From: a virus
Reading direction: 5' to 3' (one strand)
IMG/VR virus record: IMGVR_UViG_3300021959_008125
Location: 21,866 to 85,865 of that record
Length of the DNA stretch: 64,000 nucleotides
Under the pieces are notes generated by a model. That model saw only the letters and a program-made list of their open reading frames with translations. It was not told the DNA's origin and did not search any database. The translations under genes were made by a program, and so were the position numbers. Of this stretch, positions 5,742 to 64,000 are shown piece by piece (the stretch's first letter is position 1; each line of letters begins with the position of its first letter).

Positions 5742-5742
5742 A

Positions 5743-39256: not shown

Positions 39257-39714
39257 TATACTGGTTTACAGGACAGCCGGCACACGGTAAAACGGTTTTA
39301 GCAAACATGTTAAAACAGCATCTTCCTAATGCTTTTAGGATAGATGGAGATGAGATGAGAGAACTCTTTACTAATAAAGATTACTCTATTAATGGCAGAG
39401 TAGTTAATGTAGGTACAGCTCAAAAGATAGCACACTATCTTCATAATCAAGGAGAAGATGTAATTGTATCTTTAGTTGCACCTTACATAGATCAAAGAGA
39501 AGATTTTAAAAAATTACTTGGTGATAATATAGTAGAGATATATGTACATACATCAGAACCTAGGGAACGAGATCACTTTAGAGCGATAGCTTATGTTGCT
39601 CCTCAGGAAAATTTTATCGATATTGATACTACTGACGATACCCCTGAAGAATCTTTTGAAAAGATAATTGTTGCTATAAATAAAAAATGGAAAAAAAGAA
39701 CACATACTTCGTAG
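39253..39714 (+). CDS. cysC: Adenylyl-sulfate (APS) kinase
   Basis: WFTGQPAHGKT, IDGDEMR, DYS..GR, VSLVAPY...R. Confidence 0.9.
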   Translation: MIYWFTGQPAHGKTVLANMLKQHLPNAFRIDGDEMRELFTNKDYSINGRVVNVGTAQKIAHYLHNQGEDVIVSLVAPYIDQREDFKKLLGDNIVEIYVHTSEPRERDHFRAIAYVAPQENFIDIDTTDDTPEESFEKIIVAINKKWKKRTHTS

Positions 39715-40028
39715 ATATAGACGGGACTATTTTTGTCTATAGAAAATTTGAAACTTATGAGAGTTCCGAAGCTCAAGTTATAAAATCTACAAAACAATTT
39801 CTACAGCAGAAAAAAGATGAAGGCCACTGTATAGTTTTAACTACAGCTAGACCAAATTACCTAAGATTACATACTGAATATGAATTAGAAATAAATAATA
39901 TTCCTTATGACCAATTAGTTATGGGCATAGAAAGAGGACCAAGGTATTTAATTAATGATATGGACCCTAATAATCCCGGAGAACGAGCAATTGCGATAAA
40001 CTTACATAGGGATATAGGAATCAAATGA
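39687..40028 (+). CDS. HAD-family phosphatase
   Basis: DIDGT, TTAR, LIND. Confidence 0.8.
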   Translation: MEKKNTYFVDIDGTIFVYRKFETYESSEAQVIKSTKQFLQQKKDEGHCIVLTTARPNYLRLHTEYELEINNIPYDQLVMGIERGPRYLINDMDPNNPGERAIAINLHRDIGIK

Positions 40029-40759
40029 TTAATATAGGTGTCTGCATCTCAGGAGAGTTTAAGAACTACAACCTTACCAATCAATTATTTCAAACATGGA
40101 ATAGTTTATTTTCAGACGTTAATTTTAAATTTTTTTATTACGCATCAGGAAATTTAACAGATATACCTACAAATATTTCTTGGACGAAAGGCAGCAATAC
40201 AGTTTCTTACGCACATAGTCTACAGGAAGTACATAAATGTAGAGCTTCTTATAAAAATTTTGATATAATTATACAGACTAGACCTGATGTAATAATTTTT
40301 AAATATACTTTAGATTATATTAGAGACTTAGTAGTGAACGGATACGATTCTAACACGTTATTTGTAGGAAAAGGTCTTTATGAAGAAGGAGACGTTAAGT
40401 ATTTGTTAGATGATAATGTAAGTTTCGGTAGTAGTGAAATGATGGATAAGTATTCTAAAATGTATCAATATGGATTTATAGAAAATAAATTTTCTAAAAA
40501 CCAATTAGGACCCCATAGAATAAATGCTGCATGTTTGGACTTTAATGATATTTCTGTTAAAACGACCGGGTTATTTAGTTTCCTTATTAGAGATAAAAAA
40601 CTTTTCAAAAACAATATTACGTTATTAGAAAAAGGATATATAACACCTGAAATTTTAGAAGAAGAATTGAACAACAGCCCTCAAACTTTTTTGACAAAGT
40701 ATAAAAATGTTGGAGAATGGTTGGAGTTTACATTAAATAATTCATATATTACTAAATAA
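40025..40759 (+). CDS. Putative glycosyltransferase-like protein (paralog of 950)
   Basis: NIGVCISGEFK, FDIIIQTRPD. Confidence 0.5.
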   Translation: MINIGVCISGEFKNYNLTNQLFQTWNSLFSDVNFKFFYYASGNLTDIPTNISWTKGSNTVSYAHSLQEVHKCRASYKNFDIIIQTRPDVIIFKYTLDYIRDLVVNGYDSNTLFVGKGLYEEGDVKYLLDDNVSFGSSEMMDKYSKMYQYGFIENKFSKNQLGPHRINAACLDFNDISVKTTGLFSFLIRDKKLFKNNITLLEKGYITPEILEEELNNSPQTFLTKYKNVGEWLEFTLNNSYITK

Positions 40760-40766
40760 AGCTACT

Positions 40767-41168
40767 ATGGCAGAAATAAAAGCAAAGGCAGATAAAGAAA
40801 GTTCATCATCAGAAGTAAAGTATTCATTCTTTGCTGGTAGATGGCAACCACTACACAAAGGACACCTTTGGTTAATCAACGAAAGATTAAAAGAAGGTTA
40901 TAATGTATGGTTAGGAATTAGAGATGTTAAACCTGACGAAAAAAATCCTTGGACTGCTCAGGAAATCTTAGAAATGGTAAAAGAAGGAGAGTTAAAAGAA
41001 CTCATTGAAGCTGGTAAAGTTTTACCTACTATTATTCCAGATATTGAATCTATTAACTACGGTAGAGGAGTTGGTTACGATATAATAGAACATATTCCAC
41101 CTAAAGAAATAGGAGATATATCAGCTACCTCTATTAGAGAACAAATGAAAAAAGATGGTAAGTTATAA
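40767..41168 (+). CDS. HxGH nucleotidyltransferase (cytidylyltransferase-like), candidate minimal ATP sulfurylase
   Basis: GRWQPLHKGH, NP, YGRGVGY, ISATSIR; near cysC. Confidence 0.7.
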   Translation: MAEIKAKADKESSSSEVKYSFFAGRWQPLHKGHLWLINERLKEGYNVWLGIRDVKPDEKNPWTAQEILEMVKEGELKELIEAGKVLPTIIPDIESINYGRGVGYDIIEHIPPKEIGDISATSIREQMKKDGKL

Positions 41169-41361
41169 AAGACATATAGCAAAAACTATTTCATGGAGAA
41201 TCATAGGTACTTTAGATACTATGATACTTTCTGCTATTATAACTGGTAGTTGGAAAATAGGGCTCACCATAGGAGGTATAGAAGTTATTACTAAAATGGT
41301 ACTTTACTTTTTGCATGAAAGAGCATGGTATAAGTTTTCTAAATTTGGACTAAAAAAATGA
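41155..41361 (+). CDS. DUF2061 membrane protein
   Basis: KTISWRIIGT...YFLHERAW. Confidence 0.85.
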   Translation: MVSYKRHIAKTISWRIIGTLDTMILSAIITGSWKIGLTIGGIEVITKMVLYFLHERAWYKFSKFGLKK

Positions 41362-43034
41362 TACAATTAGGTATATCAGCATTCTATCACGACGCTGCAG
41401 CATGTATCGTAAAAGACGGTGTAGTAATTGCAGCTGCAGAGGAAGAAAGGTTTACTGAAATTAAACACGATAGCTCTTTTCCGATAAATGCTATTAAATG
41501 GTGTTTAGAATACACAAATTTTAAAATTCAGCATATTGATGAAGTATGTTGGTATGAAAACCCAGAAACTAAAAAAGATAGGGTACTTAAAATATTTAAA
41601 AAACGACCTTTTCGTACATTTTTACTCAAAAGAAAATTTCTAAAAGAATTTGAAGTTAATAACCCAAAGGTACTTTTAGAAGAAATCGGGTATAAAGGTA
41701 AGATTGTATTTACAGAACATCACTTATCACATGCAGCATTTAGTTTTTTAACTAGCCAATATGATGAAGCTGCTATTTTAACTGTGGATGGTGTTGGGGA
41801 GTGGGAAACTATTACTATTTCACATGGTGACGGTACTAAAATCGAGAAAAAATTATCTATAGATTTTCCTAATTCTCTTGGAATGCTTTACTCTACTATA
41901 ACAGCATATTTAGGGTTTAAACCTAACGAAGGTGAATATAAAGTTATGGGGTTAGCACCTTATGGTGATCCTACAAACTATTTTAGCAAATTAGATAAAA
42001 TTTTCACACATACTACCAATAAATTTTGGATAAAACAGAAATACTTTACTTGGGAATATTCCGATAAAGTAATGTTTAATAAAAAATTCTTTAACTTACT
42101 TAAACTACCCCCTCGGCTACCGGAAGATGAACTTACACAGGAACATAAAGATTTAGCAGCAGCATTGCAAAAAATTTATGAAAGAGAATTCTTAAAGTTA
42201 GTAAGAACTGCTAAATTAATAACAGGAAGTAAAAATTTATGTCTAGGTGGAGGTTGCGCTTATAACGGAGTAGCAAATTCTAAAGCATATAAGTATTTTG
42301 AATCTATACATATACCATTTGCACCATCAGATGCTGGTTCTGCGATTGGAGCCTGCTTATATAATTCCAAATCTAAGTTATTGCAAAATAATTCTCCTTA
42401 TTTAGGTCCTGATTATAGTAATAATTATATTTTAAAGTTACTTAAATCATACAGTAGCAGCATTCAATACTTTAAACTATCAGAACAAAAATTACTTGAA
42501 AAAACAGCAGAAATACTAAACAATCAGAACATAGTTGCTTGGTTTCAAGGAAGAATGGAATTTGGAGCAAGAGCCTTAGGTAACAGAAGCATATTAGCTT
42601 CACCTAAAGATGCTAAAATGAGAGAAAAATTAAATTACGTAATTAAAAAAAGAGAAGGATTTAGACCCTTTGCTCCTTCAGTTATAGAAGATAGTGCCTA
42701 TAAGTACTTTCATATTAAGGAACCAGTTCCTTATATGAATCAAGTTGTAAACGCTATAGATTTAGACGGCTTTGCAAGATTTACTAGATTTCCTGCTGCT
42801 ACACATGTGGATAACACATGTAGAGTTCAAACAGTAAATAAAAATTTAAATGAGAGATATTATAAACTTCTTATAGAATTAAAAAGAATATCAGGCTTCC
42901 CTGTAGTACTTAATACTTCGTTTAACTTAAAAGATCAAACTATTACTATGACTCCTAAACAGGCGATAGAAAGGTATTTGAATTCTGAAATTGATTATCT
43001 GGTAATTAATAACTATTTAATAAAAAAGATATGA
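41358..43034 (+). CDS. O-carbamoyltransferase (NodU/CmcH family)
   Basis: HDAAAC, EEERF, HHLSH, DGVGE, EYKVMGLAPYG, EFGARALGNRS, KKREGFRPFAP, NTSFN. Confidence 0.95.
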   Translation: MIQLGISAFYHDAAACIVKDGVVIAAAEEERFTEIKHDSSFPINAIKWCLEYTNFKIQHIDEVCWYENPETKKDRVLKIFKKRPFRTFLLKRKFLKEFEVNNPKVLLEEIGYKGKIVFTEHHLSHAAFSFLTSQYDEAAILTVDGVGEWETITISHGDGTKIEKKLSIDFPNSLGMLYSTITAYLGFKPNEGEYKVMGLAPYGDPTNYFSKLDKIFTHTTNKFWIKQKYFTWEYSDKVMFNKKFFNLLKLPPRLPEDELTQEHKDLAAALQKIYEREFLKLVRTAKLITGSKNLCLGGGCAYNGVANSKAYKYFESIHIPFAPSDAGSAIGACLYNSKSKLLQNNSPYLGPDYSNNYILKLLKSYSSSIQYFKLSEQKLLEKTAEILNNQNIVAWFQGRMEFGARALGNRSILASPKDAKMREKLNYVIKKREGFRPFAPSVIEDSAYKYFHIKEPVPYMNQVVNAIDLDGFARFTRFPAATHVDNTCRVQTVNKNLNERYYKLLIELKRISGFPVVLNTSFNLKDQTITMTPKQAIERYLNSEIDYLVINNYLIKKI

Positions 43035-51143: not shown

Positions 51144-51608
51144 ATGGGAAAATTTCAATCAACAAAAGTATTTGACGGATTCTCTACAGTATTTCGTCAA
51201 TGGAAAGCAGAAACAACACATTGTAAGTATTTACACGGTTACGGAGTATCTTTTAAACTATGGTTTGAAGGAGATCTAGACGAAAGAAATTGGGTATGGG
51301 ACTTTGGCGGTATGAAAAGAGCTAAAGGAAAAATTGACGGTAAGACTCCTAAAGAATGGATGGATTATATGTTTGATCATACCTTTGTAGTAGCTGAAGA
51401 TGATCCGTATCTACAGTCATTTATTAAAATGGATGGTGTAGTAGCTCAAGTAAGAGTTGTTCCTGCAACAGGAGCAGAAAGATTCGCACAGTTTATCTAT
51501 GATAAAATTAATCCTTTTATTGAAGAAGAAACTGAAGGAAGAGTAAAAATTACAAGAGTAGAATTTAGAGAGCACGGTAAAAATTCAGCGATATATGAGC
51601 CTAGGTAG
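51144..51608 (+). CDS. queD: 6-carboxytetrahydropterin synthase
   Basis: C..LHGY, WVWDFG, FDHTF, TGAE, V.F.EH..N.A.Y. Confidence 0.9.
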   Translation: MGKFQSTKVFDGFSTVFRQWKAETTHCKYLHGYGVSFKLWFEGDLDERNWVWDFGGMKRAKGKIDGKTPKEWMDYMFDHTFVVAEDDPYLQSFIKMDGVVAQVRVVPATGAERFAQFIYDKINPFIEEETEGRVKITRVEFREHGKNSAIYEPR

Positions 51609-52371
51609 AATAGAAGATTACGATAAAGGGCTACCTGTAGTAGAAGTTTATACAGCAGTACAGTCAGAAGGAAGTCGTCAAGGTTATCCTACGGTTGTTA
51701 TTAGAACTACCGGATGTACTCACAGATGTTACTTTGGTGAAGGCGGATGGTGTGATAGCTGGTATACCTCTATTCATCCGGAAAAAGGTAAATATACTTT
51801 TAACGACATTATTAAAAAGTATGATGAAAATCCTCATATATCTGAAATGATGCTAACTGGTGGGTCTCCTACAATGCACCCTAAGCTTGTAAATGAATTA
51901 ACTCACTTTGCTCACGAAAGAGGAATCTTTATTACAATAGAAACTGAAGGAAGTCATTTCTTAGAAACAGATTATCCTATTAATCTCTTATCTATTAGTC
52001 CTAAGTTTTCTAATTCTATTCCTAAAATAGGTGTTTTAACCCCTCAAGGTAGAGAAACTAATCAAAAGATGATAGATAAACATAACAGCTTAAGACTTAA
52101 TTTAGATGCTATTAAGAAATCTATAGAATATCACGATGATTATCATATTAAACCAGTATTGGATAAGAACCTAACGATCTATGGGGAGGTATGGAAATTT
52201 CTAGATGAGTTACAAATTCCTAACGATAAAGTATGGTGTATGCCTGCTGGAGATGATAGAGAATCACTGATGGAAAGTTATCCAGTAGTTATGGATTTTG
52301 TGAGAGATAAAGGATATAGATTTACTGGTAGATCCCACATAATGGCATTTGATACACAGAGAGAAGTTTGA
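51595..52371 (+). CDS. queE: 7-carboxy-7-deazaguanine synthase (radical SAM)
   Basis: VQSEG...G.P.V.IRT.GC, CDS, LTGG.P, IETEG, SISPK. Confidence 0.92.
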   Translation: MSLGRIEDYDKGLPVVEVYTAVQSEGSRQGYPTVVIRTTGCTHRCYFGEGGWCDSWYTSIHPEKGKYTFNDIIKKYDENPHISEMMLTGGSPTMHPKLVNELTHFAHERGIFITIETEGSHFLETDYPINLLSISPKFSNSIPKIGVLTPQGRETNQKMIDKHNSLRLNLDAIKKSIEYHDDYHIKPVLDKNLTIYGEVWKFLDELQIPNDKVWCMPAGDDRESLMESYPVVMDFVRDKGYRFTGRSHIMAFDTQREV

Positions 52372-52992: not shown

Positions 52993-53279
52993 TGACATTT
53001 CAAGAAATTATTAAGAATTGCCCTACAGTAGATTATTCTTCTATTTATGTTTTTATAGGAGAAGATTGCGTATGGGATTATAAAGAAGGAGATAAGAGTA
53101 TAATGCTTATTTCTGAGCAGCCCTGCATAGATGACGAAAACGTTACTTTAGCCGAGCTAATAAATTATTCTAAAGAGTTGGAAACTCCAGAAGATTTTCT
53201 TACTTTAGAATGTGAATATGAAAGACAAGAATTAAATTCGTTTGAATGGTTAGAAAACAAACTTATATTGTCCTTTTAG
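52992..53279 (+). CDS. Hypothetical acidic protein
   Basis: 95 aa coupled ORF. Confidence 0.55.
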   Translation: MTFQEIIKNCPTVDYSSIYVFIGEDCVWDYKEGDKSIMLISEQPCIDDENVTLAELINYSKELETPEDFLTLECEYERQELNSFEWLENKLILSF

Positions 53280-53857
53280 GACTACTTGCACTAGGCTGCA
53301 CTAAACCAGAGCCAGCATTATCCCAAGAACTTAGAGAAAGAGTAGAATTCAGTATAGATGGATTATTTTCCGGAGTATACTCTGAAGTATTAGAACAGCC
53401 ACTAGAGGTAACTTACATAGTACCATGCCCGGATGGAGATGCATCCAGAACAGGATTAGACTTCTACGAAGACGCAAACATTCATACATCAGATGATGAT
53501 GATTATAGAAATAATGTTTGGGATAAAGGACATTTAGCTCCAGCAGCAGCATTCTCTTGTGATAGAGAAACAATTAAAAAAACTTTTACTTATTTAAATT
53601 CAGCTTTACAGCACCAGTCTTTAAATAGAGGTGCCTGGAACAGATTAGAATCTGTCGAGAGAGGAATGGCCATTTGGCATGAAGTAGAAGTCAAAATAGA
53701 AGTTATATTTGATGAAAACAGTCAGGTTCTACCTTCAGGTGCTACAGTACCTAGAGCATTTAGGAAAACTATTAAAGCTGGGGACGTCACTAAAGTATTT
53801 TACTTCCCTAATATTGATACATCCGGAACGGATTGGGAAGATTACTTAATCCAATAA
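53246..53857 (+). CDS. DNA/RNA non-specific endonuclease, lipoprotein
   Basis: Lipobox LALGC; DKGHLAPAA; N..LQH.SLNRGAW..LE; VP..F.K. Confidence 0.9.
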   Translation: MVRKQTYIVLLGLLALGCTKPEPALSQELRERVEFSIDGLFSGVYSEVLEQPLEVTYIVPCPDGDASRTGLDFYEDANIHTSDDDDYRNNVWDKGHLAPAAAFSCDRETIKKTFTYLNSALQHQSLNRGAWNRLESVERGMAIWHEVEVKIEVIFDENSQVLPSGATVPRAFRKTIKAGDVTKVFYFPNIDTSGTDWEDYLIQ

Positions 53858-53858
53858 T

Positions 53859-54032
53859 ATGCCAGAAAAAGAATTTATTGATTGGTTCAAAGGCTTTGCC
53901 GAAGGAGCCCATCATTTTAATATTTCTCCAAAGCAATGGGAGGAATTGAAAGAAAAACTATCGTCCGTTGGGAAGGAATCTAGTAATAATTATGTAATCG
54001 ATAATAATTACTGGACAACAACGATAGCTTAA
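53859..54032 (+). CDS. Small hypothetical protein (57 aa, not in ORF track)
   Basis: MPEKEFIDWFKGFAEG...QWEELKEKL. Confidence 0.6.
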   Translation: MPEKEFIDWFKGFAEGAHHFNISPKQWEELKEKLSSVGKESSNNYVIDNNYWTTTIA

Positions 54033-54041
54033 AGGTTATAT

Positions 54042-56576
54042 ATGTTTAATTTTAATTTATTTATGATGAGAAATCTCATTTTAACTCTGTTAGGTTTACT
54101 AACAGTTGGAGCTTACGCTCAAGAAAGCGCTGTAAATGACACAATCGTTACACAGCAGTTAGAAGAAGTTGTAGTCTCTTCAAGAGTTATTGACGTTGCT
54201 AAAGCACGTGTTACTCCTGTAGCAGTATCAACAATTTCAGCTAGCGACATTTCGTTGAAAGTAGGTAACTTAGAGTTTCCTGAAATCATGAACAGCACAC
54301 CTGGTGTGTATGCTACAAAACAAGGCGGTGGATATGGGGACTCTCGTATCTCATTACGTGGTTTTGATCAGCGTAACACTTCTTTCCTTATCAATGGACA
54401 ACCAGTTAACGATATGGAAAACGGATGGGTGTATTGGTCAAACTGGCAAGGATTAACCGATGTTGCTTCAGGTATCCAAATCCAAAGAGGATTGGGCGCT
54501 TCAAGGTTAGCAGTACCTTCTGTAGGTGGAACAGTATCCATCTTCACAAAAGCTGCAAGTAAAGATGAAGGAGGATCATTTACTCAAGTAATCGGAAATG
54601 ATGGCTACACTAAAACAACAGCAGCCTACAACACCGGTAAAAACGAGAACGGATGGGCAACTTCTGTTTTATTAAGTAAATGGGCTGGAGACGGTTACAT
54701 TTATAATACATCCGGAGAAGGATGGACTTACTTCTTTGCATTAGGATATGCACCAGAAGATTCTAATCACGCTCTTAACTTATCAGTTTTAGGTGCAGGA
54801 CAATGGCACCACCAAAGAGATGTTTGGGTATCTATTAGAGATTACCAAAACTTCGGAGAAGAAGGAATTGATAGAAGATGGAATTCAAATGGTGGAATTT
54901 TAAATGGAGAAGAATATTCTTTAAGAAGAAACTTCTACAACAAACCATTAGCTACATTGAACTGGGATTGGGATATTTCTGAGAACGTTCAATTAAACAC
55001 TTCTTTCTACGCTTCAGCAGGTAGAGGTGGAGGAACAGGACCTAGAGGTAATAACTTTAGAGGTTCAGCAACAGATATCTTACCTTTTAGAAAAGATCTA
55101 ACTGAGCATTACTTAGAAAATGGTAGAGGTTCAAGATTGGCTAATGGATTTATTGATTTTGATGCTATTGTTGCTTCTAACAGAAATACGACTGATCCTT
55201 ATACTGGAGATATTTCTAGATTTGCTGGTCAAAAAATTGGTTCTAATGGATTTAGAGATGATGGAGTAAATAGAGTAGCTTTAATTAGAAGAGCTTCTAT
55301 GAACTCTCATGACTGGGTAGGTGCAATTTCGTCTTTAGATATTACTTCTGGTAATTTTAAATACTCTTTAGGAGTTGATCTTAGAAACTACACTGGGTAT
55401 CATTACCGAGTAGTTAACGATCTATTAGGATTAGATGGTTATTATTCAACAGGTAACAAGAACTCTGCTGGTCAGATTATTGAAACAACAGTTGAAGCAA
55501 ACCCATTCAAGAACACTGGAATTAGAGGACCTAAAATCGACTACTATAATATCGGTAAAGTAGGTTGGCAAGGTGTTAACGGTTTAGTTGAATATAACAA
55601 CTCTACCTTATCTGCAGTATTACAAGCAGGTCTATCTAACCAATCATTCCAAAGAATAGACTACTTTGATCAACCTGGTAATCCAGAATCTGATGTACAA
55701 AATCAAGGAGGAGGATATGTTAAAGGTGGTGCTAACTATAACTTAGATGAAAAATCTAATGTATTCTTTAATGCAGGTTATATCTCTAGACAGCCACAAT
55801 TTGACGCAGTATTCCCTAACTATGCAAATAACATCAATCCAGATCTACAAAACGAAGAAATTCAATCAGTAGAATTTGGGTATGGATTTATTACAAATAA
55901 GTTAAAATTAAACGTAAACGTTTACTCTACAAACTGGGGTAATAGATTTGTTACAAGAAACTTATCTAACCAGCAAGGAGTAGATGGATTCGCACAATTT
56001 AAAGATATCGATGTTACTCACAACGGTATTGAAATTGAAGGAACTTATAGTTTATCTTATAAAACTAAGTTTAAAGGAATGTTATCAATTGGTGACTGGA
56101 CTTATGATCAAAACTTTGAAGCTGAATTATTTGACGATAATCAGCAATCAATCGGTACTGGAACTCTTTATACTAAAGGAGCTAAAGTTGGTGATGCAGC
56201 ACAATTCGTTGCTAACCTAGCAGTTGATCAAAACTTAGGAAGATTAGGTAAGTTAGATCTTAACTATAGATTCGTAGATGGTTTATATGCTGACTACTCG
56301 ATTACAGATTCAGCATTTACTTCACCAGATAACGATGGTGCGTTAAAACTACCTTCTTACGGTATTGTAGACCTAGGATATACAAAATACTTCGGAAGTA
56401 AATTAAGCTTCAGAGCGAATGTAAATAACGTGTTAGACACAACTTATATTGCTGAGTCTAACTCTAATATTCATGCAGGAGCAGGCTCAACTACATGGAA
56501 TGGAATCGATGTAAGAAACTCAGTATGGTTCGGATTTGGAAGAACTTTCAATGCGTCTCTTAAATATAGATTCTAA
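54042..56576 (+). CDS. TonB-dependent outer-membrane receptor
   Basis: Signal peptide (likely start 54063), TonB box LEEVVV, plug TPGVY/SLRGF/LINGQP/IQRG, C-terminal GRTFNASLKYRF. Confidence 0.95.
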   Translation: MFNFNLFMMRNLILTLLGLLTVGAYAQESAVNDTIVTQQLEEVVVSSRVIDVAKARVTPVAVSTISASDISLKVGNLEFPEIMNSTPGVYATKQGGGYGDSRISLRGFDQRNTSFLINGQPVNDMENGWVYWSNWQGLTDVASGIQIQRGLGASRLAVPSVGGTVSIFTKAASKDEGGSFTQVIGNDGYTKTTAAYNTGKNENGWATSVLLSKWAGDGYIYNTSGEGWTYFFALGYAPEDSNHALNLSVLGAGQWHHQRDVWVSIRDYQNFGEEGIDRRWNSNGGILNGEEYSLRRNFYNKPLATLNWDWDISENVQLNTSFYASAGRGGGTGPRGNNFRGSATDILPFRKDLTEHYLENGRGSRLANGFIDFDAIVASNRNTTDPYTGDISRFAGQKIGSNGFRDDGVNRVALIRRASMNSHDWVGAISSLDITSGNFKYSLGVDLRNYTGYHYRVVNDLLGLDGYYSTGNKNSAGQIIETTVEANPFKNTGIRGPKIDYYNIGKVGWQGVNGLVEYNNSTLSAVLQAGLSNQSFQRIDYFDQPGNPESDVQNQGGGYVKGGANYNLDEKSNVFFNAGYISRQPQFDAVFPNYANNINPDLQNEEIQSVEFGYGFITNKLKLNVNVYSTNWGNRFVTRNLSNQQGVDGFAQFKDIDVTHNGIEIEGTYSLSYKTKFKGMLSIGDWTYDQNFEAELFDDNQQSIGTGTLYTKGAKVGDAAQFVANLAVDQNLGRLGKLDLNYRFVDGLYADYSITDSAFTSPDNDGALKLPSYGIVDLGYTKYFGSKLSFRANVNNVLDTTYIAESNSNIHAGAGSTTWNGIDVRNSVWFGFGRTFNASLKYRF

Positions 56577-56592
56577 TATTGAAAAAAAAATT

Positions 56593-56622
56593 AAGGGGAG
56601 CTTTTTAGCTCCCTTTTTTTTT
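56593..56622 (+). terminator. Rho-independent terminator
   Basis: AAGGGGAGCT-tttt-AGCTCCCTTT followed by a T run. Confidence 0.88.
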
Positions 56623-56636
56623 CTTATATTATTAAT

Positions 56637-57056
56637 ATGAAAGAAAAGGTTTATTTATCATGGAATTGGGTAGATCAACAAGTTATGACTCTTGGGGAGA
56701 CTATCAAAGAATCAGTCAGTGAATTTTTATACGTAACAGGCATTCCAAGAGGAGGTTTAATCCCTGGAGCATACCTTTCACATTATTTAGGAATAAAATA
56801 CATTCCATATGCTGATGCAAAACAGCTTCCTATAAGTCTTAGAAAACAAGTTTTAGTAATAGACGATATCTGTGATAGCGGTATGACTTTATTAGAAGCT
56901 ACAGAATACGGATTCCAGACAGCAGCTTTAGCATACAGATACTCTTCTCCCTATATGCCTGAATGGTATTCAGAAAAAATAGAAGATGATAGATGGCTTG
57001 TATTTCCATGGGAAAGAGTAGATTCAAAAACAATACAAGATTATTTGGATAATTGA
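56637..57056 (+). CDS. Purine phosphoribosyltransferase (Gpt-like)
   Basis: GIPRGGLIP, VLVIDDICDSGMT (PRPP loop), WLVFPWE. Confidence 0.9.
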   Translation: MKEKVYLSWNWVDQQVMTLGETIKESVSEFLYVTGIPRGGLIPGAYLSHYLGIKYIPYADAKQLPISLRKQVLVIDDICDSGMTLLEATEYGFQTAALAYRYSSPYMPEWYSEKIEDDRWLVFPWERVDSKTIQDYLDN

Positions 57057-57073
57057 GATAATATTCCTATATT
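57045..57073 (+). promoter_or_regulatory. Bacteroidota-type promoter TTG-N20-TATATT for the folE operon
   Basis: TTG at 57045-57047, TATATT at 57068-57073. Confidence 0.7.
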
Positions 57074-57086
57074 GTATAATGGTTAT

Positions 57087-57116
57087 GAGTGTCGTAGAAC
57101 CACTTTAAAAAACAAT
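57087..57116 (+). ncRNA. Putative class I preQ1 riboswitch aptamer
   Basis: P1 GAGTG/CACTT, loop TCGTAGAAC, tail TAAAAAACAA, a few nt from the folE ATG. Confidence 0.78.
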
Positions 57117-57118
57117 TA

Positions 57119-57787
57119 ATGAGTAAAGATTTAGAATTAGTAAAAGTAGGTTATGCCAACGGAGTTGCTCCTGGCTTTCCTCTAACAGAAGATGAAAAAT
57201 GGAAAATGGTCGAACTAGCGGCTGAAAAGTATGGAGAGTTTCTCGATGCTTTAGGTTGTGATTGGCGTAATGATCCTAATTCGGCTGATACTCCTAGAAG
57301 AGTAGCTAAAGCCTATGCATTCGATCTATGGAAAGGTAGATACGATGCTATGACTGATATAACAGCATTTCCTTCTGACGGTTATAACGGAATCGTTCAG
57401 GAGTCTAATATCCCGGTGACATCGATGTGTAGCCATCACCATCAGACTATTGGTGGTCGTGTGAGTATCGCTTATGTACCGTCTGAGAATGGTAAAGTAG
57501 TAGGTCTGTCTAAACTCAACCGAATCGTCGAGCATTTCGGTAGAAGAGGTGCTATACAAGAGCAGCTTACTGTAGCCATTCATAATGCAATCGATAAGAT
57601 TTGCGAAGGTAACTTAGGTGTAGCGGTAATGATCGATGCTACCCATAACTGTGTTAGCTGTAGAGGTGTTAAACATCACGGTGCTTCAATGCAAACAGCT
57701 AAACTATCAGGATGCTTCTTAAATGAAGATTCAGCGAGAGCGGAGTTTTACAAGAATATTGAACTAGCAGGAAAATGCAGATCGTAG
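57119..57787 (+). CDS. folE: GTP cyclohydrolase I
   Basis: TPRRVAK, SMCSHH, GLSKLNR, IQEQLT, H.CVSCRGV. Confidence 0.97.
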   Translation: MSKDLELVKVGYANGVAPGFPLTEDEKWKMVELAAEKYGEFLDALGCDWRNDPNSADTPRRVAKAYAFDLWKGRYDAMTDITAFPSDGYNGIVQESNIPVTSMCSHHHQTIGGRVSIAYVPSENGKVVGLSKLNRIVEHFGRRGAIQEQLTVAIHNAIDKICEGNLGVAVMIDATHNCVSCRGVKHHGASMQTAKLSGCFLNEDSARAEFYKNIELAGKCRS

Positions 57788-58209
57788 ACTTCGAAGAAAG
57801 ACCTTGGGGGTATTATGAAGTTCTTTTAGAGCTTCCTGAGACTAAAGTAAAGCAGATTACAGTAGATAACGGTCATAGATTATCTTATCAATATCATGTG
57901 CATAGAGATGAGACTTGGGTTGTTGTTGCTGGAAAAGCTAAAGTAACCTTAGACGGTAAAAATACTATAGTAGAACCAGGTCAGACTATTCAAATTACTA
58001 GAGGTGTAAAACATAGAGTAGAAGCCATAGGTAAAGAAGACTTAACATTTATAGAAGTACAGACCGGAGATTACTTCGGTGAAGATGATATAGTTAGGTT
58101 AGAGGATGATTATGAAAGAGCAGAATTAGAGCATCTTAGAGATAATAACTATATTGGGGGGTTAACTATGCCTATTAAAAATACTAATAAACTAAATAAA
58201 GATGAGTAA
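57775..58209 (+). CDS. Mannose-6-phosphate isomerase type II C-terminal cupin
   Basis: RPWG, LSYQYH.HR.E.W, IEVQTG.Y.GEDDIVR..DDY. Confidence 0.9.
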   Translation: MQIVDFEERPWGYYEVLLELPETKVKQITVDNGHRLSYQYHVHRDETWVVVAGKAKVTLDGKNTIVEPGQTIQITRGVKHRVEAIGKEDLTFIEVQTGDYFGEDDIVRLEDDYERAELEHLRDNNYIGGLTMPIKNTNKLNKDE

Positions 58210-58765
58210 GCAATTATCATTATTCCCAGCAGAAGAACTAGAATGGGTTAACGGAGTCCCGTTTGTGGATGAAGTAGAAACTTTTAACAAAACATTTGGT
58301 AAACCAAATAACTATGAACCAACTATCCCCGCAGAAAAAGAATGGAAGTTTGTCTATGACTTCATACTCGAAGAACTTGAAGAATATAGAGAAGCTTGCG
58401 AAAGGGGCGACATTGTGGAAGTTTTGGACGCTTTGTGCGACATTACTTATGTTTCCCTTGGGAACGGTGTTATGTTACATGGCCTTAAGGATAAGATATG
58501 GGACGCATATCAAGAGGTACAAGCAAGTAATATGTCAAAAGCTTGTAAAACTGAAGAAGAAGCCATACAGACCGTCAGCCAAAGAAGTGAGGAACAAGGT
58601 GAGGCCTGTCATTATGAGAAGATTGCGCAAGGAAGGTTTATTGTCTACCGTTCCAGAGATCGAAAAGTAATGAAATCAATTAACTACTTCAGACCAGACT
58701 TAACTAAGTTTTTTACTGAAGATGATATATTTAGAAATAGACCACAACAACACGTAGGAATATGA
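58202..58765 (+). CDS. All-alpha NTP pyrophosphohydrolase (MazG-like, DR2231/PRA-PH family)
   Basis: EELEEY, DALCDITYV, EV..SNMSK, K..K...Y..PDL. Confidence 0.85.
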   Translation: MSKQLSLFPAEELEWVNGVPFVDEVETFNKTFGKPNNYEPTIPAEKEWKFVYDFILEELEEYREACERGDIVEVLDALCDITYVSLGNGVMLHGLKDKIWDAYQEVQASNMSKACKTEEEAIQTVSQRSEEQGEACHYEKIAQGRFIVYRSRDRKVMKSINYFRPDLTKFFTEDDIFRNRPQQHVGI

Positions 58766-58935
58766 TTAATTTAGATGAACATAAAGTTTACGTAGAGAGT
58801 CATAAAATGGATATGATTCCATATTCAGTTGCTAAACAAGCTGTGCAAGAAGCTTACAATAATGCTGAACAAGTAGAGACTTCATTAAATGATATCATAA
58901 AAGCTTTTAATAAATTAAATTCATTAGATGATTAA
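58762..58935 (+). CDS. Small hypothetical protein (57 aa, not in ORF track)
   Basis: MINLDEHK...; overlaps both neighbours. Confidence 0.55.
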   Translation: MINLDEHKVYVESHKMDMIPYSVAKQAVQEAYNNAEQVETSLNDIIKAFNKLNSLDD

Positions 58936-59755
58936 AATAGCACACGAAGCTCCTATAGATATCTTTGAAGAAGTTCAGAGATTTACAGATTACGATTATG
59001 CTTTAGTTCATTTGCTTGAACAAAATTCTAGATATAGAGATACTTTTGAAAGAGTTATTAAAAAAGGTAGAGAAGTTATTTTAGATAATTCTATCTTTGA
59101 GTTAGAAGAAGCTTTTGAAGCTGATAGATTTGATCAGTGGATTAATAGACTTAAGCCGTACTGGTATATCGTTCCTGATGCATTAGAAGATGCAGAAAAA
59201 ACTATGCGTCAAATGCAAGACTGGAATGATAAAGGATACGGGTATAAAGGTAGCTGTAAGATAGGTGTTGTTCAAGGTAAGACTTATGATGAGATTGTTG
59301 ACTGTTATAACTTTATGAATGAACCTCAACAGGATGTAGATATGATTGCTATATCTTTTGACTATTCGTATTATACTGTATCTGTCCCTCATCCTAACAA
59401 ATATGTAAGTTGGATGCTTGGTAGAGTTAAACTCTTAGGAGACCTATTGAGAGACGGTGTGATAAACACTGAAAAGAAGCATCACCTATTAGGTTGCGGA
59501 TTACCTCAAGAATTTAGTTTTTATAAGCATTCAGATTATAATTGGATCTATTCTTTAGATACTTCTAACCCTATAGTACATGCTATAAAAGGCATAGAAT
59601 ATACCGATCAAGGATTATGGAACAAAGAATCTCAAAAGCTACATGAGCTTATCGATTATGATATTGATAAAATTGATTTGTCTTTAATGAAGACTAATTT
59701 GGTTAAATTTAGATGGTTTACAAATGGAGAAACGCCAGTGGGTAGCATACTTTAG
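58928..59755 (+). CDS. dpdA: TGT-fold 7-deazaguanine transglycosylase-like protein (DpdA family)
   Basis: ILDNS, VPD, GVVQG, HHLLG, SLDTS motifs; located in the que gene cluster. Confidence 0.75.
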   Translation: MIKIAHEAPIDIFEEVQRFTDYDYALVHLLEQNSRYRDTFERVIKKGREVILDNSIFELEEAFEADRFDQWINRLKPYWYIVPDALEDAEKTMRQMQDWNDKGYGYKGSCKIGVVQGKTYDEIVDCYNFMNEPQQDVDMIAISFDYSYYTVSVPHPNKYVSWMLGRVKLLGDLLRDGVINTEKKHHLLGCGLPQEFSFYKHSDYNWIYSLDTSNPIVHAIKGIEYTDQGLWNKESQKLHELIDYDIDKIDLSLMKTNLVKFRWFTNGETPVGSIL

Positions 59756-60269
59756 TCAGACAGGAGCTGAAATAGCTGATATTTGCGAGTCTATCGGTAG
59801 ATGGCCTACTCGCATTATTACTAATAAAAGACCTAAGCACTTAAGAACCATAGATCCTAGAATTACTCAGCATGGTTATTTAGAAATGTCTAATAAACCA
59901 ACCTTTAATGAATATCATGAAATACTTCAATATTTAAATGATCCTATTATTACTTTACATGGATGGCTAAGAATAATGCCTCCTGGAGTTTGTGATGCGT
60001 TTGAAATTTTTAATGGTCATCCCGGACTAATTACTAAGTATCCAGAACTTAAAGGTAAAGATCCTCAAGTAAAAGCTTTTTCAGCTCAATATAAAGAGAT
60101 TGGTTCTGTTATACATAAAGTAGATGCAGGAGTAGACGAAGGTCCTGTATTAGCAGAATCGAGTATTTTTATTGGCGGATTCAGTTTAGAGGATTATTAT
60201 AAAGAACTTAAGATATTAAGTTTAGAACTTTGGGAAGATTTCTTGAGAGAACGTTTAAATATCGAGTAA
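59724..60269 (+). CDS. PurN-like formyltransferase, candidate preQ1 formyltransferase (DpdN-like)
   Basis: FSQTG, LHGWLRI, NGHPGL, G.VIH.VD.GVDEGPV; overlaps the dpdA-like gene. Confidence 0.8.
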   Translation: MEKRQWVAYFSQTGAEIADICESIGRWPTRIITNKRPKHLRTIDPRITQHGYLEMSNKPTFNEYHEILQYLNDPIITLHGWLRIMPPGVCDAFEIFNGHPGLITKYPELKGKDPQVKAFSAQYKEIGSVIHKVDAGVDEGPVLAESSIFIGGFSLEDYYKELKILSLELWEDFLRERLNIE

Positions 60270-60288
60270 TTTTTCGTATATTATTATT

Positions 60289-60807
60289 ATGGTAAAAAGA
60301 ATAGCATTAGTTGGAGCAAGTAGTACAGGTAAAACAACTGTTTATGAATTACTTAAGACTAAGCTACCTAAGTATGAATTTGTAAACGAATCTACTAGAA
60401 CAGTAGGTAATTATGGTTTTCCTATTAATGAGGCTGGTACTTCTGAAACTCAATTAGCTATCAGTAGCTTCCATTTAGAAGCATTACTACAACCTTATAA
60501 TCTTGTATTAGACAGATGTTATATGGATCTAGTAGCATACTCTAGATTCATGCCTAATATAAGCAAAGAGACGTTAAAATATATCTTAGATACATGGCAA
60601 AGGGTTAAAAATGAATATACTCATTATGTATATTTTCCTATCGAATTCGACTCTGTTGATGATGGAGTTAGAAGTATTGACGAGCAGTGGAGAAAAGATA
60701 TAGATGATGAGTTTTTTGAGATGCTGCAAGATGTAAGACAACCTTACTTATCTGTTACAGGATCTCCTATGCAAAGAGTAGAACAAATATTAGAATTTAT
60801 AAAATGA
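60289..60807 (+). CDS. P-loop nucleotide kinase (AAA_28/NadR-like, candidate dNMP kinase)
   Basis: GASSTGKTT, E..R, DRC..D, DDGVR, G....R. Confidence 0.75.
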   Translation: MVKRIALVGASSTGKTTVYELLKTKLPKYEFVNESTRTVGNYGFPINEAGTSETQLAISSFHLEALLQPYNLVLDRCYMDLVAYSRFMPNISKETLKYILDTWQRVKNEYTHYVYFPIEFDSVDDGVRSIDEQWRKDIDDEFFEMLQDVRQPYLSVTGSPMQRVEQILEFIK

Positions 60808-61715
60808 GTGAAGTTAAAAATTACCAAGAAGTAGTAGAGATTGCATCAAAGCACTTAGGACAAGTCGGAGGAGCTGGTTATTCAGATCAATACAATCCTG
60901 AACTACTAGTAAAAGTTCCTAGATACTTAAACAGAGAGGGTTATGGTTTAACATCAGATAGTTTTTTAGGTGTGGATACCTGGAACTGTTACGAAGTATC
61001 AGCGATTACTACCAAAGGTCAGCCTGTTGCCGGAATGCTTAAAATTGTATGTCCTGCAGATTCGGAGTTTCACGTAGAATCTAAGTCAATTAAGTTATAT
61101 TTAAACTCTTTTAATATGACTCAGATTGGCGATAATGCTGCTGATTGTATTAAAGCTATAGAAGCTACAGTTAAAAGAGATTTAGATGAATTATTAGAAA
61201 CTAATACTACAGTTTCATTTTATGCTTCTAATGATGAAGGTGAGGCTCTATCTTTTGAAGGATATCAAGATTTAGGAGATGTTGTAGATTTAGACCAAAT
61301 AGATTTTACCGCATTTAAGTCTGATGCTTCTCAGTTAATGGTTGAAGATACTGATGATGAAGCTAAAGTAATTAAATTTAAATCTAATCTACTTAGATCT
61401 AATTGTAGAGTTACTAATCAACCAGATTGGGGTGATGTATTTATCTACTTAAAAGGAAAAAAACTACCTGCAGCAGATTCGTTAGCAAAATATATAGTAA
61501 GTCATAGAACAGTAAGTCATTTTCATGAAGAAATATGCGAGATGGTTTACAAACATATATCAGATGCATATGAACCTGAGCAGTTAATGGTTGCTTGTCT
61601 TTATACTAGAAGAGGAGGTTTAGATATTAATCCGATTAGAGCATCTCATTCTATGCTAATACCAGAATTTTTTATTAATCCTGATTATAGAATTACTAAA
61701 ACTTTAAGACAGTAA
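60804..61715 (+). CDS. queF: preQ0 nitrile reductase (bimodular QueF)
   Basis: D.W..YE.S, ESKSIKLYLNS, LRSNCRVTNQPDWG, FHEE, YTRRGGLDINP. Confidence 0.95.
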   Translation: MSEVKNYQEVVEIASKHLGQVGGAGYSDQYNPELLVKVPRYLNREGYGLTSDSFLGVDTWNCYEVSAITTKGQPVAGMLKIVCPADSEFHVESKSIKLYLNSFNMTQIGDNAADCIKAIEATVKRDLDELLETNTTVSFYASNDEGEALSFEGYQDLGDVVDLDQIDFTAFKSDASQLMVEDTDDEAKVIKFKSNLLRSNCRVTNQPDWGDVFIYLKGKKLPAADSLAKYIVSHRTVSHFHEEICEMVYKHISDAYEPEQLMVACLYTRRGGLDINPIRASHSMLIPEFFINPDYRITKTLRQ

Positions 61716-61972
61716 TGGCAGTAGAAACACAGGAAGTAATTGAATTAATAGCAGAAAGAATGCCACCTGGCGATAATTGGGAGCTATTGATAGATAGAGG
61801 TAACACAATTGAAGGGTTAGTACAGACATTAACTCAATATATGCGTAAGACTAAATTTAAAGGTCACTATAGATTAGAGCCTTTAAACGGTAAGCTTTTT
61901 ATTATTAAAGAACAGCAGATTGACGTTCCGGAACCTGAACCAGAAGTTTGGGATTTATACGGAGAATATTAA
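61715..61972 (+). CDS. Hypothetical protein
   Basis: 85 aa ORF, ER.PPGD.W. Confidence 0.65.
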   Translation: MAVETQEVIELIAERMPPGDNWELLIDRGNTIEGLVQTLTQYMRKTKFKGHYRLEPLNGKLFIIKEQQIDVPEPEPEVWDLYGEY

Positions 61973-61973
61973 G

Positions 61974-62001
61974 AAAGAGGTTGGTTTATCCAACCTTTTT
62001 T
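61974..62001 (+). terminator. Rho-independent terminator overlapping the next promoter
   Basis: AAAGAGGTTGG-tttat-CCAACCTTTTT; TTG at 61981 and TATATT at 62004. Confidence 0.8.
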
Positions 62002-62026
62002 CGTATATTAAAGTATAATTAAGGTT

Positions 62027-62395
62027 ATGTGTAAAGTTACATGGTGTAATACCCCTATAGAAGAAGGAGCTCACTTTGCTACTAAGTACTGTAAAGTTCA
62101 TAGACAGTATAAGACATACGGTAAAAATGCTCCTAGAAGACCTTGGCTATTTTATAAGACAGAAAGGGTAGTAGCAGGTAATTTAAAATGTGAAAGCTGT
62201 GGTTATGACCCTACGGAATTTTATTCTAGAACTTTAAAAGAATTGAGTGGTTTATTTGACGTAGATCACATAAATTCTAATACTAAACATACTGTAGAAG
62301 GAGAACAACCCTCTAACTATCAACTTGTTTGTAAACATTGTCATATACTTAAATCATATGACGAAGGTGATTTTATTAGAAAAGATTTTAGATAA
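62027..62395 (+). CDS. HNH endonuclease (Zn-binding)
   Basis: CESC...DVDHIN...NYQLVCKHCH..KS. Confidence 0.85.
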   Translation: MCKVTWCNTPIEEGAHFATKYCKVHRQYKTYGKNAPRRPWLFYKTERVVAGNLKCESCGYDPTEFYSRTLKELSGLFDVDHINSNTKHTVEGEQPSNYQLVCKHCHILKSYDEGDFIRKDFR

Positions 62396-64000
62396 ATGCA
62401 ATTAGAAAAAAAGTACTATACCGTCCAAGACTCTGAGACGTTAAAGTTAATGTTCCAACACATTCAAGAGTCAGAAGTAATAGCAGTCGATACAGAGACC
62501 TCCGGTCTTAATCCTAGAAAGAATAAAATTGTAGGATGGTCACTATCTGGTGATGAAGGTATCGGTTTCTATATTCCTACTTTAGTTTGGAATTTTGAGA
62601 AAGGTGAACTAGAGTTACAGACTATTGACGGTACTTCTACCGAAACTATCTCTAAAAATCTACTCAAAGCATTAAAAGGTAAAAAGCTTGTATTTCACAA
62701 TGCTTCTTTCGACGTTCAGTTTATTAAAAACTACTTCGGTGTAGATTTACTACCAGACGTTTGGGTTGATACTGGATTACTTGTACATACAGTTTACGAG
62801 GAGGGTGCTTTTGGATTCGGTAACCCTTTTGGACTAAAGTCCATAGCGATAATGAACCAAGAAGCTCTTGGACTAAATGTCGAAGAGGCTGCTAACCAAG
62901 AACAAATTGAACTAAAAGAAAGTATTAAGAAAAATGGTGGTTCTGTTACTAAAGAAAGTTTTGAGATCTATAAAGCAGATCTTGAGATACTCAGCAAATA
63001 CGCTTCTGCTGATACTGACCTTACCCTTCGCATTTGCAATCTATATTTGGATAAGCTTAGAGATGAAGGACTTGAGAAATTCTTCTTTGAAGAGGAAGTA
63101 ATGCCTATATACCGTGAGGTTACTGTACCTATGGAGGCTTACGGAGTAGATTTAGATACGGAACTTATCGACCGTATTCACGATGAAATCGTAGAAGATC
63201 AGAAAAAGAATAAAGAGATAGTTATGAAGTCTCTTTTAGCTATACCTGAAGTCAAAGAGTGGGTAGTAGCTACGTCTATGGAAAACTATCCTGTCTCGCA
63301 TAAAGGTAATTGGGCTCAGAGTTTAGTAGAAAGATATTCTCTACCTTTACCTAAATCTGAAAAAACTGGTAAGTATTCTCTTACTGCAAAGTATATTAAC
63401 GAACTAGAAGATTCAAACGTCAAGCAATTCCTACTAACCGGAGACGATACCCTTATTGACGATATTGAAAAAGCTAGAATCTCTATGGCTCTATGGAAAG
63501 AGTCTAATGACGGAGACTATATTAATATACAATCTAAAAAGCACTTGGGTGAAATCGTCTTCGGTTACATGGGAATCAAACCTAAAGTATCAGGAGCTAA
63601 TACTAAATCTGGTCGAGATAAGTTCGACATGGATATGGTTGAAGAACTCGCTAAAGAATATCCTTGGGCTGAAAACCTACGCATCTATAATAAGTTATTA
63701 AAGATCAAATCTACCTACGTAGACAGGTTTAGAGACCGTCAGGAAGATGGTAGATACTACTTTTACTTTAAACAAAACGGTACTGTATCAGGCCGCTACG
63801 GTTCTGATGCCCAGCAGCTACCTAAACCTCTTGAACCAGGTGAAGATGCCCCTGTAATCGAAAAGTACGTTAATATTGTTCGTGCTTTCTTGATTGCCGG
63901 AAAAAGTAGAAAGGTAATTGATTGTGACTACGAATCTCTTGAACCTCACTGTTTTGCTTCTGTAACTGGAGATAAGAAACTTCAAGAAATCTTTAATAAT
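62396..64000 (+). CDS. polA: Family A DNA polymerase with 3'-5' exonuclease, 3' truncated (not in ORF track)
   Basis: ATG at 62396; ExoI DTETSG, ExoII FHNASFD, ExoIII YASAD; GTVSGRY; motif A DCDYESLEPH. Confidence 0.92.
   Translation, partial: MQLEKKYYTVQDSETLKLMFQHIQESEVIAVDTETSGLNPRKNKIVGWSLSGDEGIGFYIPTLVWNFEKGELELQTIDGTSTETISKNLLKALKGKKLVFHNASFDVQFIKNYFGVDLLPDVWVDTGLLVHTVYEEGAFGFGNPFGLKSIAIMNQEALGLNVEEAANQEQIELKESIKKNGGSVTKESFEIYKADLEILSKYASADTDLTLRICNLYLDKLRDEGLEKFFFEEEVMPIYREVTVPMEAYGVDLDTELIDRIHDEIVEDQKKNKEIVMKSLLAIPEVKEWVVATSMENYPVSHKGNWAQSLVERYSLPLPKSEKTGKYSLTAKYINELEDSNVKQFLLTGDDTLIDDIEKARISMALWKESNDGDYINIQSKKHLGEIVFGYMGIKPKVSGANTKSGRDKFDMDMVEELAKEYPWAENLRIYNKLLKIKSTYVDRFRDRQEDGRYYFYFKQNGTVSGRYGSDAQQLPKPLEPGEDAPVIEKYVNIVRAFLIAGKSRKVIDCDYESLEPHCFASVTGDKKLQEIFNN

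Follow-up and report, generated by a model that had tools for sequence, protein, structure and literature searches.

The DNA analysed here, referred to as the window, is a stretch of 64,000 nucleotides from a virus, a marine phage (IMG/VR record IMGVR_UViG_3300021959_008125, positions 21,866 to 85,865). It carries the genes for making the 7-deazaguanine preQ1, together with a DpdA3-type guanine transglycosylase, the formyltransferase DpdN and a small P-loop kinase. Comparison with related loci identified this kinase as the steady companion of DpdA3, which hints that guanine may be swapped on free nucleotides before copying, contrary to the published proposal; of the neighbouring genes, those for the MazG-like protein and a phosphoribosyltransferase (PRTase) are clade-limited, and PolA is not a dedicated partner. 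The record comprises 85,865 bases, of which the window is the final 64 kb, with a CheckV completeness of 52%. The G+C content of the window is ∼0.27 to 0.38, and every gene lies on the + strand. The end of the window is the end of the contig, and PolA runs off it. Genes were identified from open reading frame (ORF) calls and from Pfam, NCBIfam and PHROG searches, and those relevant to the system are as follows.

37428-38246, +, queC, 7-cyano-7-deazaguanine synthase (PF06508, 2.3e-39; 68.8% identity to immuto_2-6A QueC by tblastn), 20 kb upstream of the main cluster
51144-51608, +, queD, 6-carboxytetrahydropterin synthase (PF01242, 1.3e-14; 72% identity to immuto_2-6A)
51595-52371, +, queE, radical SAM CDG synthase (PF04055, 1.4e-07; 72.4% identity to immuto_2-6A QueE, 70% to phiST QueE)
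53246-53857, +, non-specific endonuclease (domain search)
54042-56576, +, 844-aa TonB-dependent-receptor-like ORF, Plug plus beta-barrel (domain search)
56637-57056, +, Gpt-like 6-oxopurine PRTase (PF00156, 26.4 bits against a cut-off of 26.3; phrog_8995, 1.4e-19; NF006613 xanthine PRT, 2.1e-12, residues 1-127)
57119-57787, +, folE, GTP cyclohydrolase I (PF01227, 1.3e-43)
57775-58209, +, stand-alone cupin of the C-terminal phosphomannose isomerase (PMI) domain type (PF01050, 1.2e-31; TIGR01479, 7e-34, C-terminal part only)
58202-58765, +, MazG-like all-alpha NTP pyrophosphohydrolase (PF01503, PRA-PH, 6.7e-11; phrog_671, 1e-29)
58762-58935, +, 57-aa ORF (no Pfam or PHROG match)
58928-59755, +, DpdA3-type guanine transglycosylase, 275 aa (no Pfam match; 68.5% identity to immuto_2-6A DpdA)
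59724-60269, +, DpdN, PurN-like formyltransferase (PF00551, 1.1e-10; TIGR00639, 4.6e-11; 52% identity to immuto_2-6A DpdN)
60289-60807, +, small P-loop kinase with the fold of NadR ribosylnicotinamide kinase (RNK), thymidylate kinase (TMK) and deoxynucleoside kinase (dNK) (AAA_28, 2.1e-17; phrog_2107, 5e-25)
60804-61715, +, queF, bimodular NADPH-dependent preQ0 reductase (PF14819, QueF_N, 1.8e-28; PF14489, QueF, 1.8e-17; TIGR03138, 8.2e-72)
61715-61972, +, 85-aa conserved ORF (no Pfam match; family found in 24 of the 74 groups defined below)
62027-62395, +, HNH gene (domain search)
62396-64000, +, family A DNA polymerase with 3'-5' exonuclease and polymerase domains, incomplete at the contig end (PF00476, 1.8e-20; PF01612, 2.8e-12; 66% identity to immuto_2-6A PolA)

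A reading made earlier from the letters of the window (the sequence-only reading) had placed a complete preQ1 pathway and a dpdA-like gene overlapping a PurN-like gene at 56637-64000, flanked by the PRTase, MazG-like, P-loop kinase and PolA genes. All of these genes were recovered by Pfam, NCBIfam or their identity to immuto_2-6A, on the + strand throughout. The five pathway genes (FolE, QueD, QueE and QueC, plus QueF) are all in the window; only folE and queF fall inside that interval, with queD, queE and queC outside it, and the cupin, the HNH gene and the 57-aa and 85-aa ORFs had been overlooked. From folE through the 85-aa ORF the frames abut or overlap with a single gap of 19 nt; those of dpdA3 and dpdN overlap by 32 nt. 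A megablast search of 56000-64000 against the phage collection rendered no match, and no preQ1 riboswitch family turned up when 36000-64000 was scanned with Rfam at E≤1.

The same genes are found in a cultured relative, phage immuto_2-6A, in whose DNA dG was undetectable and all G was replaced by fdPreQ1, that is, 7-(formylamino)methyl-7-deazaguanine (Cui et al. 2023, PMC10516641). Both phages carry, in order, QueD, QueE, PRTase, FolE, a hydrolase (MazG), a small ORF, DpdA3, DpdN, a 'thymidylate kinase', QueF and PolA, with QueC far upstream, and the corresponding proteins are 41 to 72% identical. The non-specific endonuclease and the 844-aa receptor-like gene before the PRTase, and the HNH gene before PolA, are extra insertions in the window relative to immuto_2-6A, and the cupin stands where immuto_2-6A has DUF4494. 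By homology and synteny, the window is part of the genome of an immuto-like phage that belongs to Flavobacteriia, with the full GTP-to-preQ1 module plus DpdA3 and DpdN. A gene set that replaces all G by a formylated 7-deazaguanine has therefore already been described, and the window is by its gene content a further example of it. The sequence-only reading had connected formylated dPreQ1 and a PurN paralogue, DpdN, with a Flavobacterium myophage, and this was borne out by immuto_2-6A, for which DpdN, as a PurN paralogue, was named by prediction (Cui et al. 2023, PMC10516641).

The window DpdA3 is ∼40% identical to the CP220 group protein, and phiST CGPG_00065 was aligned to the family profile with an hhalign probability of 98.8%; together with the identity to the immuto_2-6A protein, this homology places it in the DpdA3 subfamily, which is said to permit complete replacement in CP220, phiST and immuto (PMC10516641). 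The family is large (1427 representatives at E≤1e-3) and essentially viral: one IMG/VR scan gave 114 relatives and another at least 543, while 185,579 species genomes contained only 9 loci, all of them on contigs of metagenome-assembled genomes (MAGs). Its tie to the tRNA-guanine transglycosylase (TGT) superfamily at the sequence level is weak. The top profile match in the PDB was bacterial DpdA (7ui4, a DNA-guanine transglycosylase), with an E value of 0.78 and over the HLLG...D(T/S)(S/T)xP stretch only, and PF01702 was matched by 1 of 51 members at a weak E value of 0.23, with DUF6610 matched by 8. The two elements of that stretch, H185-H-L-L-G189 and D211-T-S-N-P215, were at least 95% conserved in 72 sequences, and the Atlas neighbours of DpdA3 carry the names transglycosylase or DpdA. 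Single-sequence PDB searches with the MazG-like protein, the kinase and DpdA3 rendered nothing useful. Three DpdA3-locus proteins (P0006, P0143 and P0145) bear extensions that match no Pfam family.

DpdN, for its part, contains a PurN-type domain in which N97, H99 and D138 were at least 95% conserved in 53 sequences; we take these residues to be the equivalents of N106, H108 and D144 of PurN. It is encoded together with DpdA and with FolE to QueF, it is related to YP_010114479, and its counterpart in immuto_2-6A occupies the same position. In two cases DpdA3 and DpdN are fused (P0019 and P0055). Several loci without DpdN carry a GNAT acetyltransferase in its slot, either alone (L099, 8819-9268) or fused to a HAD domain (L069, 5528-7054; L076; L077, 6918-8444), and in others a weak GNAT domain is fused to the kinase (L008, 6123-7079; L014, 10331-11287); the C terminus of the DpdA3 protein P0096 is a sub-threshold GNAT match (E 0.047). 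From these genes, the loci with GNAT for DpdN (L099, L069/L077 and L008/L014) are predicted to make N-acetyl-dPreQ1 DNA, of which no description was found. In three further groups (L089, L145 and L147), an unannotated family of 181 to 190 aa, similar in size to DpdN, lies between DpdA3 and the kinase; it may be either a divergent form of DpdN or a different tailoring enzyme.

For the comparison of neighbourhoods, ORFs were called in the window slice and in 164 loci that had been fetched. A DpdA3 ORF was found in 159 loci, and the five in which none was detected at E≤1e-10 were dropped. The IMG/VR loci were the best 80 of the 114 matches to the window protein and the best 80 of the at least 543 matches to P0126, and are not a random sample. 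Neighbours were clustered by BLAST, counting ORFs of 45 aa or more that were nested by at most 40% inside a longer ORF, and the loci were collapsed to 74 groups at 85% DpdA3 identity. Downstream families were counted where 2.5 kb or more was available on that side (68 groups; 6 of the 74 excluded), and upstream families where 4 kb or more was available (58 groups; 16 excluded). Among the 68 groups, the kinase was present within 6 kb in 61, QueF in 62 and DpdN in 49. Among the 58, FolE was present in 36, the PRTase in 30, the MazG-like gene and the 57-aa ORF in 26 each, and the cupin in 12. The order DpdA3-(DpdN)-kinase-QueF recurs amid unrelated flanks, and in the immuto-like clade the 57-aa ORF is always immediately 5' of DpdA3.

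In 3 more groups the kinase was located ∼7 kb downstream, behind an inserted block, which brings the association to 64 of 68. The groups without it were Youna2 and three represented by fragments of 6 to 18% (L109, L087/L093 and L149). In Youna2, an unrelated 183-aa P-loop ORF lies directly upstream of the DpdA3-like gene. The kinase was also found beside DpdA3 in 4 of 7 assessable MAG contigs; a search of the whole MAGs for AAA_28 was uninformative because the matches on other contigs were bacterial genes. In CP220 the order is an HD plus P-loop fusion, DpdA3 and the kinase (gp057), which is 33% identical to that of the window (E 5e-18); a second AAA_28 paralogue is located at 5419-5844 of this phage. 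In phiST the order is MazG, DpdL, an AAA_18 P-loop protein and DpdA3, and the AAA_18 protein matches the kinase profile at the P-loop only. The same profile, which had given matches elsewhere (as in the search ∼7 kb downstream), gave none in the complete genomes of four phages whose DpdA is of another type (phiSM, Dru_SM1, Arbiter and pVco-14).

A similar picture was obtained by tblastn. The kinase was detected in 117 of 50,697 phage records (89 of Streptomyces, 17 of Campylobacter, 5 of Bacteroides, 4 of Flavobacterium and 2 of others) and QueC in 263, including 60 of Vibrio, 48 of Mycobacterium and 34 of Escherichia; the two lists have only the DpdA3 genera, Campylobacter and Flavobacterium, in common. 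In the BE-cluster Streptomyces phages (Karimac, L165, 67035-68446, and 88 more records), the AAA_28 kinase comes right after an FkbM-type methyltransferase gene, with a MazG-like gene 5 kb upstream, and another nucleotide-level modification may be encoded here. The 263-aa 'methyltransferase' upstream of the Karimac kinase was considered as a hidden DpdA3 and rejected (hhalign probability 0.1%; FkbM domain).

Matches of the family profile to NadR RNK (1lw7, with a common VDDG[VL]RS motif), TMK (2pbr, over the full length, 1.5e-5) and dNK (8puu) indicate that the fold is of the small-molecule kinase type. The invariant residues are G9, G14, K15 (the Walker A lysine), R37, D75, R76 and R128. A role as ribosylnicotinamide kinase supplying the NADPH of QueF was set aside because in CP220 and L092, where QueF is not adjacent, DpdA3 is still accompanied by the kinase, and because no NMN (nicotinamide mononucleotide) adenylyltransferase is adjacent. 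Searches of the literature on DpdA3, fdPreQ1 and pre-replicative deazaguanine found no report of the link between DpdA3 and the kinase; neither 'kinase' nor 'phosphoribosyl' occurs in the main text of PMC10516641, whose supplements include gene tables that may list neighbours. The sequence-only reading had counted the kinase as part of the system, and the neighbourhood counts are in agreement with this.

Other partners were less constant. The MazG-like protein, in which the acidic residues E57, E58, E61, E73, D76 and D80 were at least 95% conserved in 28 sequences, is by its family a candidate for the enzyme that converts dGTP to dGMP; BLAST detected no likeness between it and the MazG of phiST. 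In CP220 (L003, 53542-54573), the fusion directly upstream of DpdA3 joins an HD domain to an AAA_33 P-loop domain, and in this dG-free phage the HD domain is a candidate for the removal of dGTP. The PRTase, with RGG and DDIxDxGxT motifs at least 95% conserved in 32 sequences, sits among queE, queD and folE in many loci. In the window, the endonuclease and the receptor-like ORF (53246-56576) are inserted between queE and the PRTase, and a hairpin with a U tract behind it, read from a weak model match, lies at ∼56590-56629, between the receptor ORF and the PRTase. Of the 74 groups, only 5 had the receptor ORF in their representative, against 30 of 58 groups for the PRTase, so the latter belongs with the deazaguanine genes and not with the insert; it may act either in guanine salvage or as a deazapurine PRTase. 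The cupin, which overlaps both folE and the MazG-like gene, equals the C-terminal isomerase domain of mannose-1-P guanylyltransferase/PMI. All 5 DpdA3 records that were searched encode ribonucleotide reductase; none of them encodes guanylate kinase. The polymerases adjacent to DpdA3 belong to families A and B and to a DnaE-like type, and PolA is therefore not a dedicated part of the system, contrary to the sequence-only reading; the MazG-like gene, which that reading also regarded as a part, is present in fewer than half of the groups.

These data led us to a reading, to which we assign a probability of about 0.5, in which replacement by DpdA3 passes through a phosphorylated small molecule, at the level of the nucleoside or nucleotide, before the DNA is copied. 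Past the identification of the genes, each step is proposed from the predicted functions. The MazG-like enzyme, in the clade that has it, would convert dGTP to dGMP and empty the pool; DpdA3, acting on a free deoxynucleoside or deoxynucleotide, would put preQ1 in the place of guanine; and DpdN, sometimes fused to DpdA3, would formylate the side-chain amine. The NadR-RNK/TMK-like kinase would then phosphorylate the product, host kinases would complete the triphosphate, and whichever replicative polymerase the phage has would incorporate it. The guanine set free would most likely be salvaged by the Gpt-like PRTase into GMP and GTP, for use by FolE. MazG, the 57-aa ORF, DpdA3, DpdN, the kinase and QueF are encoded in an order that parallels these proposed steps. 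Of the nucleotide-level replacement put forward in the sequence-only reading, the link with the kinase thus stood, while MazG and the PRTase proved to be clade-limited, as shown by their counts, and adjacency to a polymerase proved unspecific.

Several observations weigh against a nucleotide-level route. To our knowledge, all characterised enzymes of the TGT superfamily act on a polynucleotide. The substrate of bacterial DpdA is DNA (Gedara et al., PMC10164549). The MazG-like gene does not extend beyond the immuto-like clade (26 of 58 groups), and no PRTase is present in CP220, in Youna2 or in 28 of the 58 groups. The 89 Streptomyces phage records carry the kinase family beside the FkbM methyltransferase without DpdA3, and three Firmicutes-type MAG contigs (L175, L177 and L178) have no AAA_28 kinase within ∼6 kb, their DpdA3 abutting a family A or B polymerase; L149, L087/L093 and L109 also lack the kinase, although they are fragments. 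In partially modified Seuratvirus-type phages DpdA likewise lies next to a polymerase, and in Dru_SM1 and pVco-14 it precedes a clamp and a polymerase. Common descent is another possible reason why gene order is conserved in phage modules. Post-replicative insertion was proposed for all such modifications by Cui et al. (PMC10516641), arguing from the presence of DpdA in every modified phage. Copying would then proceed with ordinary dGTP, DpdA3 would swap every G in the DNA for preQ1, with formylation by DpdN before or after insertion, and the kinase, MazG and PRTase would belong to general nucleotide metabolism or to GTP supply. The membership of DpdA3 in a superfamily whose known members act on polynucleotides, the alignment of the HLLG...DTSNP stretch with 7ui4, the kinase-less contigs with DpdA3 beside a polymerase and the patchy occurrence of MazG and PRTase all speak for it. 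It nevertheless leaves unexplained why 64 of 68 groups, and CP220 too, have a protein of small-molecule kinase fold beside DpdA3, why phiST and Youna2 have non-orthologous P-loop proteins there, and why the kinase is absent from the DpdA types that act on DNA. Moreover, a motif-free exchange of 100% of G differs from the 0.1 to 30% modified by other DpdA types (also given as 0.01 to 30%; PMC10516641, Discussion), and the DpdA3 tests of Cui et al. in E. coli failed, the enzyme being inactive in the DNA assay (PMC10516641). The same article cites a finding of ADG nucleoside in cells infected with CP220, which counts in favour of the nucleotide-level route. On balance, post-replicative exchange is the less probable of the two, but it stays a serious rival.

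The P-loop protein might instead be an NTPase driving DpdA3 on DNA, since the insertion of preQ0 into DNA by bacterial DpdA requires ATP hydrolysis by DpdB (PMC10164549). Constant adjacency and fusions would suit such a two-protein machine equally well; in a search for kinase fusions among longer proteins, which is weak evidence, none were found. DpdB has a ParB fold, whereas the window protein matches small-molecule kinases and has invariant K15, R37, D75-R76 and R128, with a DR motif and an arginine of the lid among its conserved features, and is a poor fit to a DpdB-like partner. ParB_N (PF02195) was present in none of four DpdA3 records (that of the window, which is 52% complete, immuto_2-6A, CP220 and phiST), while a ParB-like gene follows DpdA in phiSM (6.1e-7); we regard an NTPase partner as improbable. 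The biosynthesis of toyocamycin and tubercidin provides the model for a further alternative, a ribonucleotide route of the PRTase type. In this route the PRTase would join preQ1 and phosphoribosyl pyrophosphate into a ribonucleoside monophosphate, the kinase would render the diphosphate and the phage ribonucleotide reductase the deoxy form, with DpdA3 merely clearing residual G or having another target. The Gpt-like, 6-oxopurine type of the PRTase, its position among the preQ1 genes and the reductase found in every record searched are consistent with it. DpdA3 and the kinase persist, however, where the PRTase is missing, and guanine salvage is a simpler account of this enzyme, so that a ribonucleotide origin is very improbable.

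To explain how every G comes to be replaced by a bulky 7-deazaguanine, the sole paper on DpdA3 infers post-replicative exchange from homology alone. In the comparative pattern found here, the kinase occurs with DpdA3 across phages of Bacteroidota and Campylobacter and not in partially modifying phages. If the preferred, nucleotide-level route is correct, it would provide a new reaction type for the TGT superfamily and enzymes for making 7-substituted 7-deaza-dGTPs, and it would alter the annotation of such clusters in viromes, IMG/VR alone having over 540 relatives. Should it be wrong, the association with the kinase still needs explaining. Elsewhere in the window, beside queC and a tRNA-Glu gene, ORFs resembling APS kinase, HAD phosphatase and cytidylyltransferase and a 558-aa carbamoyltransferase ORF (38669-43034) might be part of a second modification or of a glycan pathway.

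Compared with known systems, CP220 (dADG) and phiST (dDG), in which replacement of G is complete, share with the window a DpdA3 homologue, a small P-loop protein next to it and an NTP (pyro)phosphohydrolase close by (HD in CP220, MazG in phiST). They differ from it in having no QueF, no DpdN, another final base and polymerases of other families, and the P-loop protein of phiST is of the AAA_18 and not the AAA_28 type. Bacteria (PMC10164549) and phiSM pair DpdA with a ParB-fold NTPase, which was not found in the four DpdA3 records. The DpdA/DpdB system of bacteria and the phage DpdA systems of the phiSM, Seuratvirus and Rosebush types belong to the same superfamily and have the same preQ0/preQ1 supply genes; they differ in the partial extent of modification and, in the four phage genomes searched, in the lack of the kinase.

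In phage T4, hydroxymethyl-C is provided by a dCTPase, a dCMP hydroxymethylase and a dNMP kinase, and in Z genomes of the S-2L type the corresponding enzymes are MazZ/DatZ and PurZ. The system in the window may work like these pool-level systems, in which a pyrophosphohydrolase acting on the canonical dNTP is combined with an enzyme for production of the modified dNMP and with a kinase, and complete replacement is the outcome. T4 gp42 and PurZ are unrelated in sequence to DpdA3, and here the base would be swapped and not built on the nucleotide. Tentatively, then, DpdA3 might be the first member of the TGT superfamily to act on free deoxynucleosides or deoxynucleotides and, with an obligatory kinase and in some clades a dGTP pyrophosphohydrolase, might form a pathway that rewrites the guanine pool in analogy to that of T4 for cytosine; this would account for the restriction of 100% replacement to DpdA3 phages.

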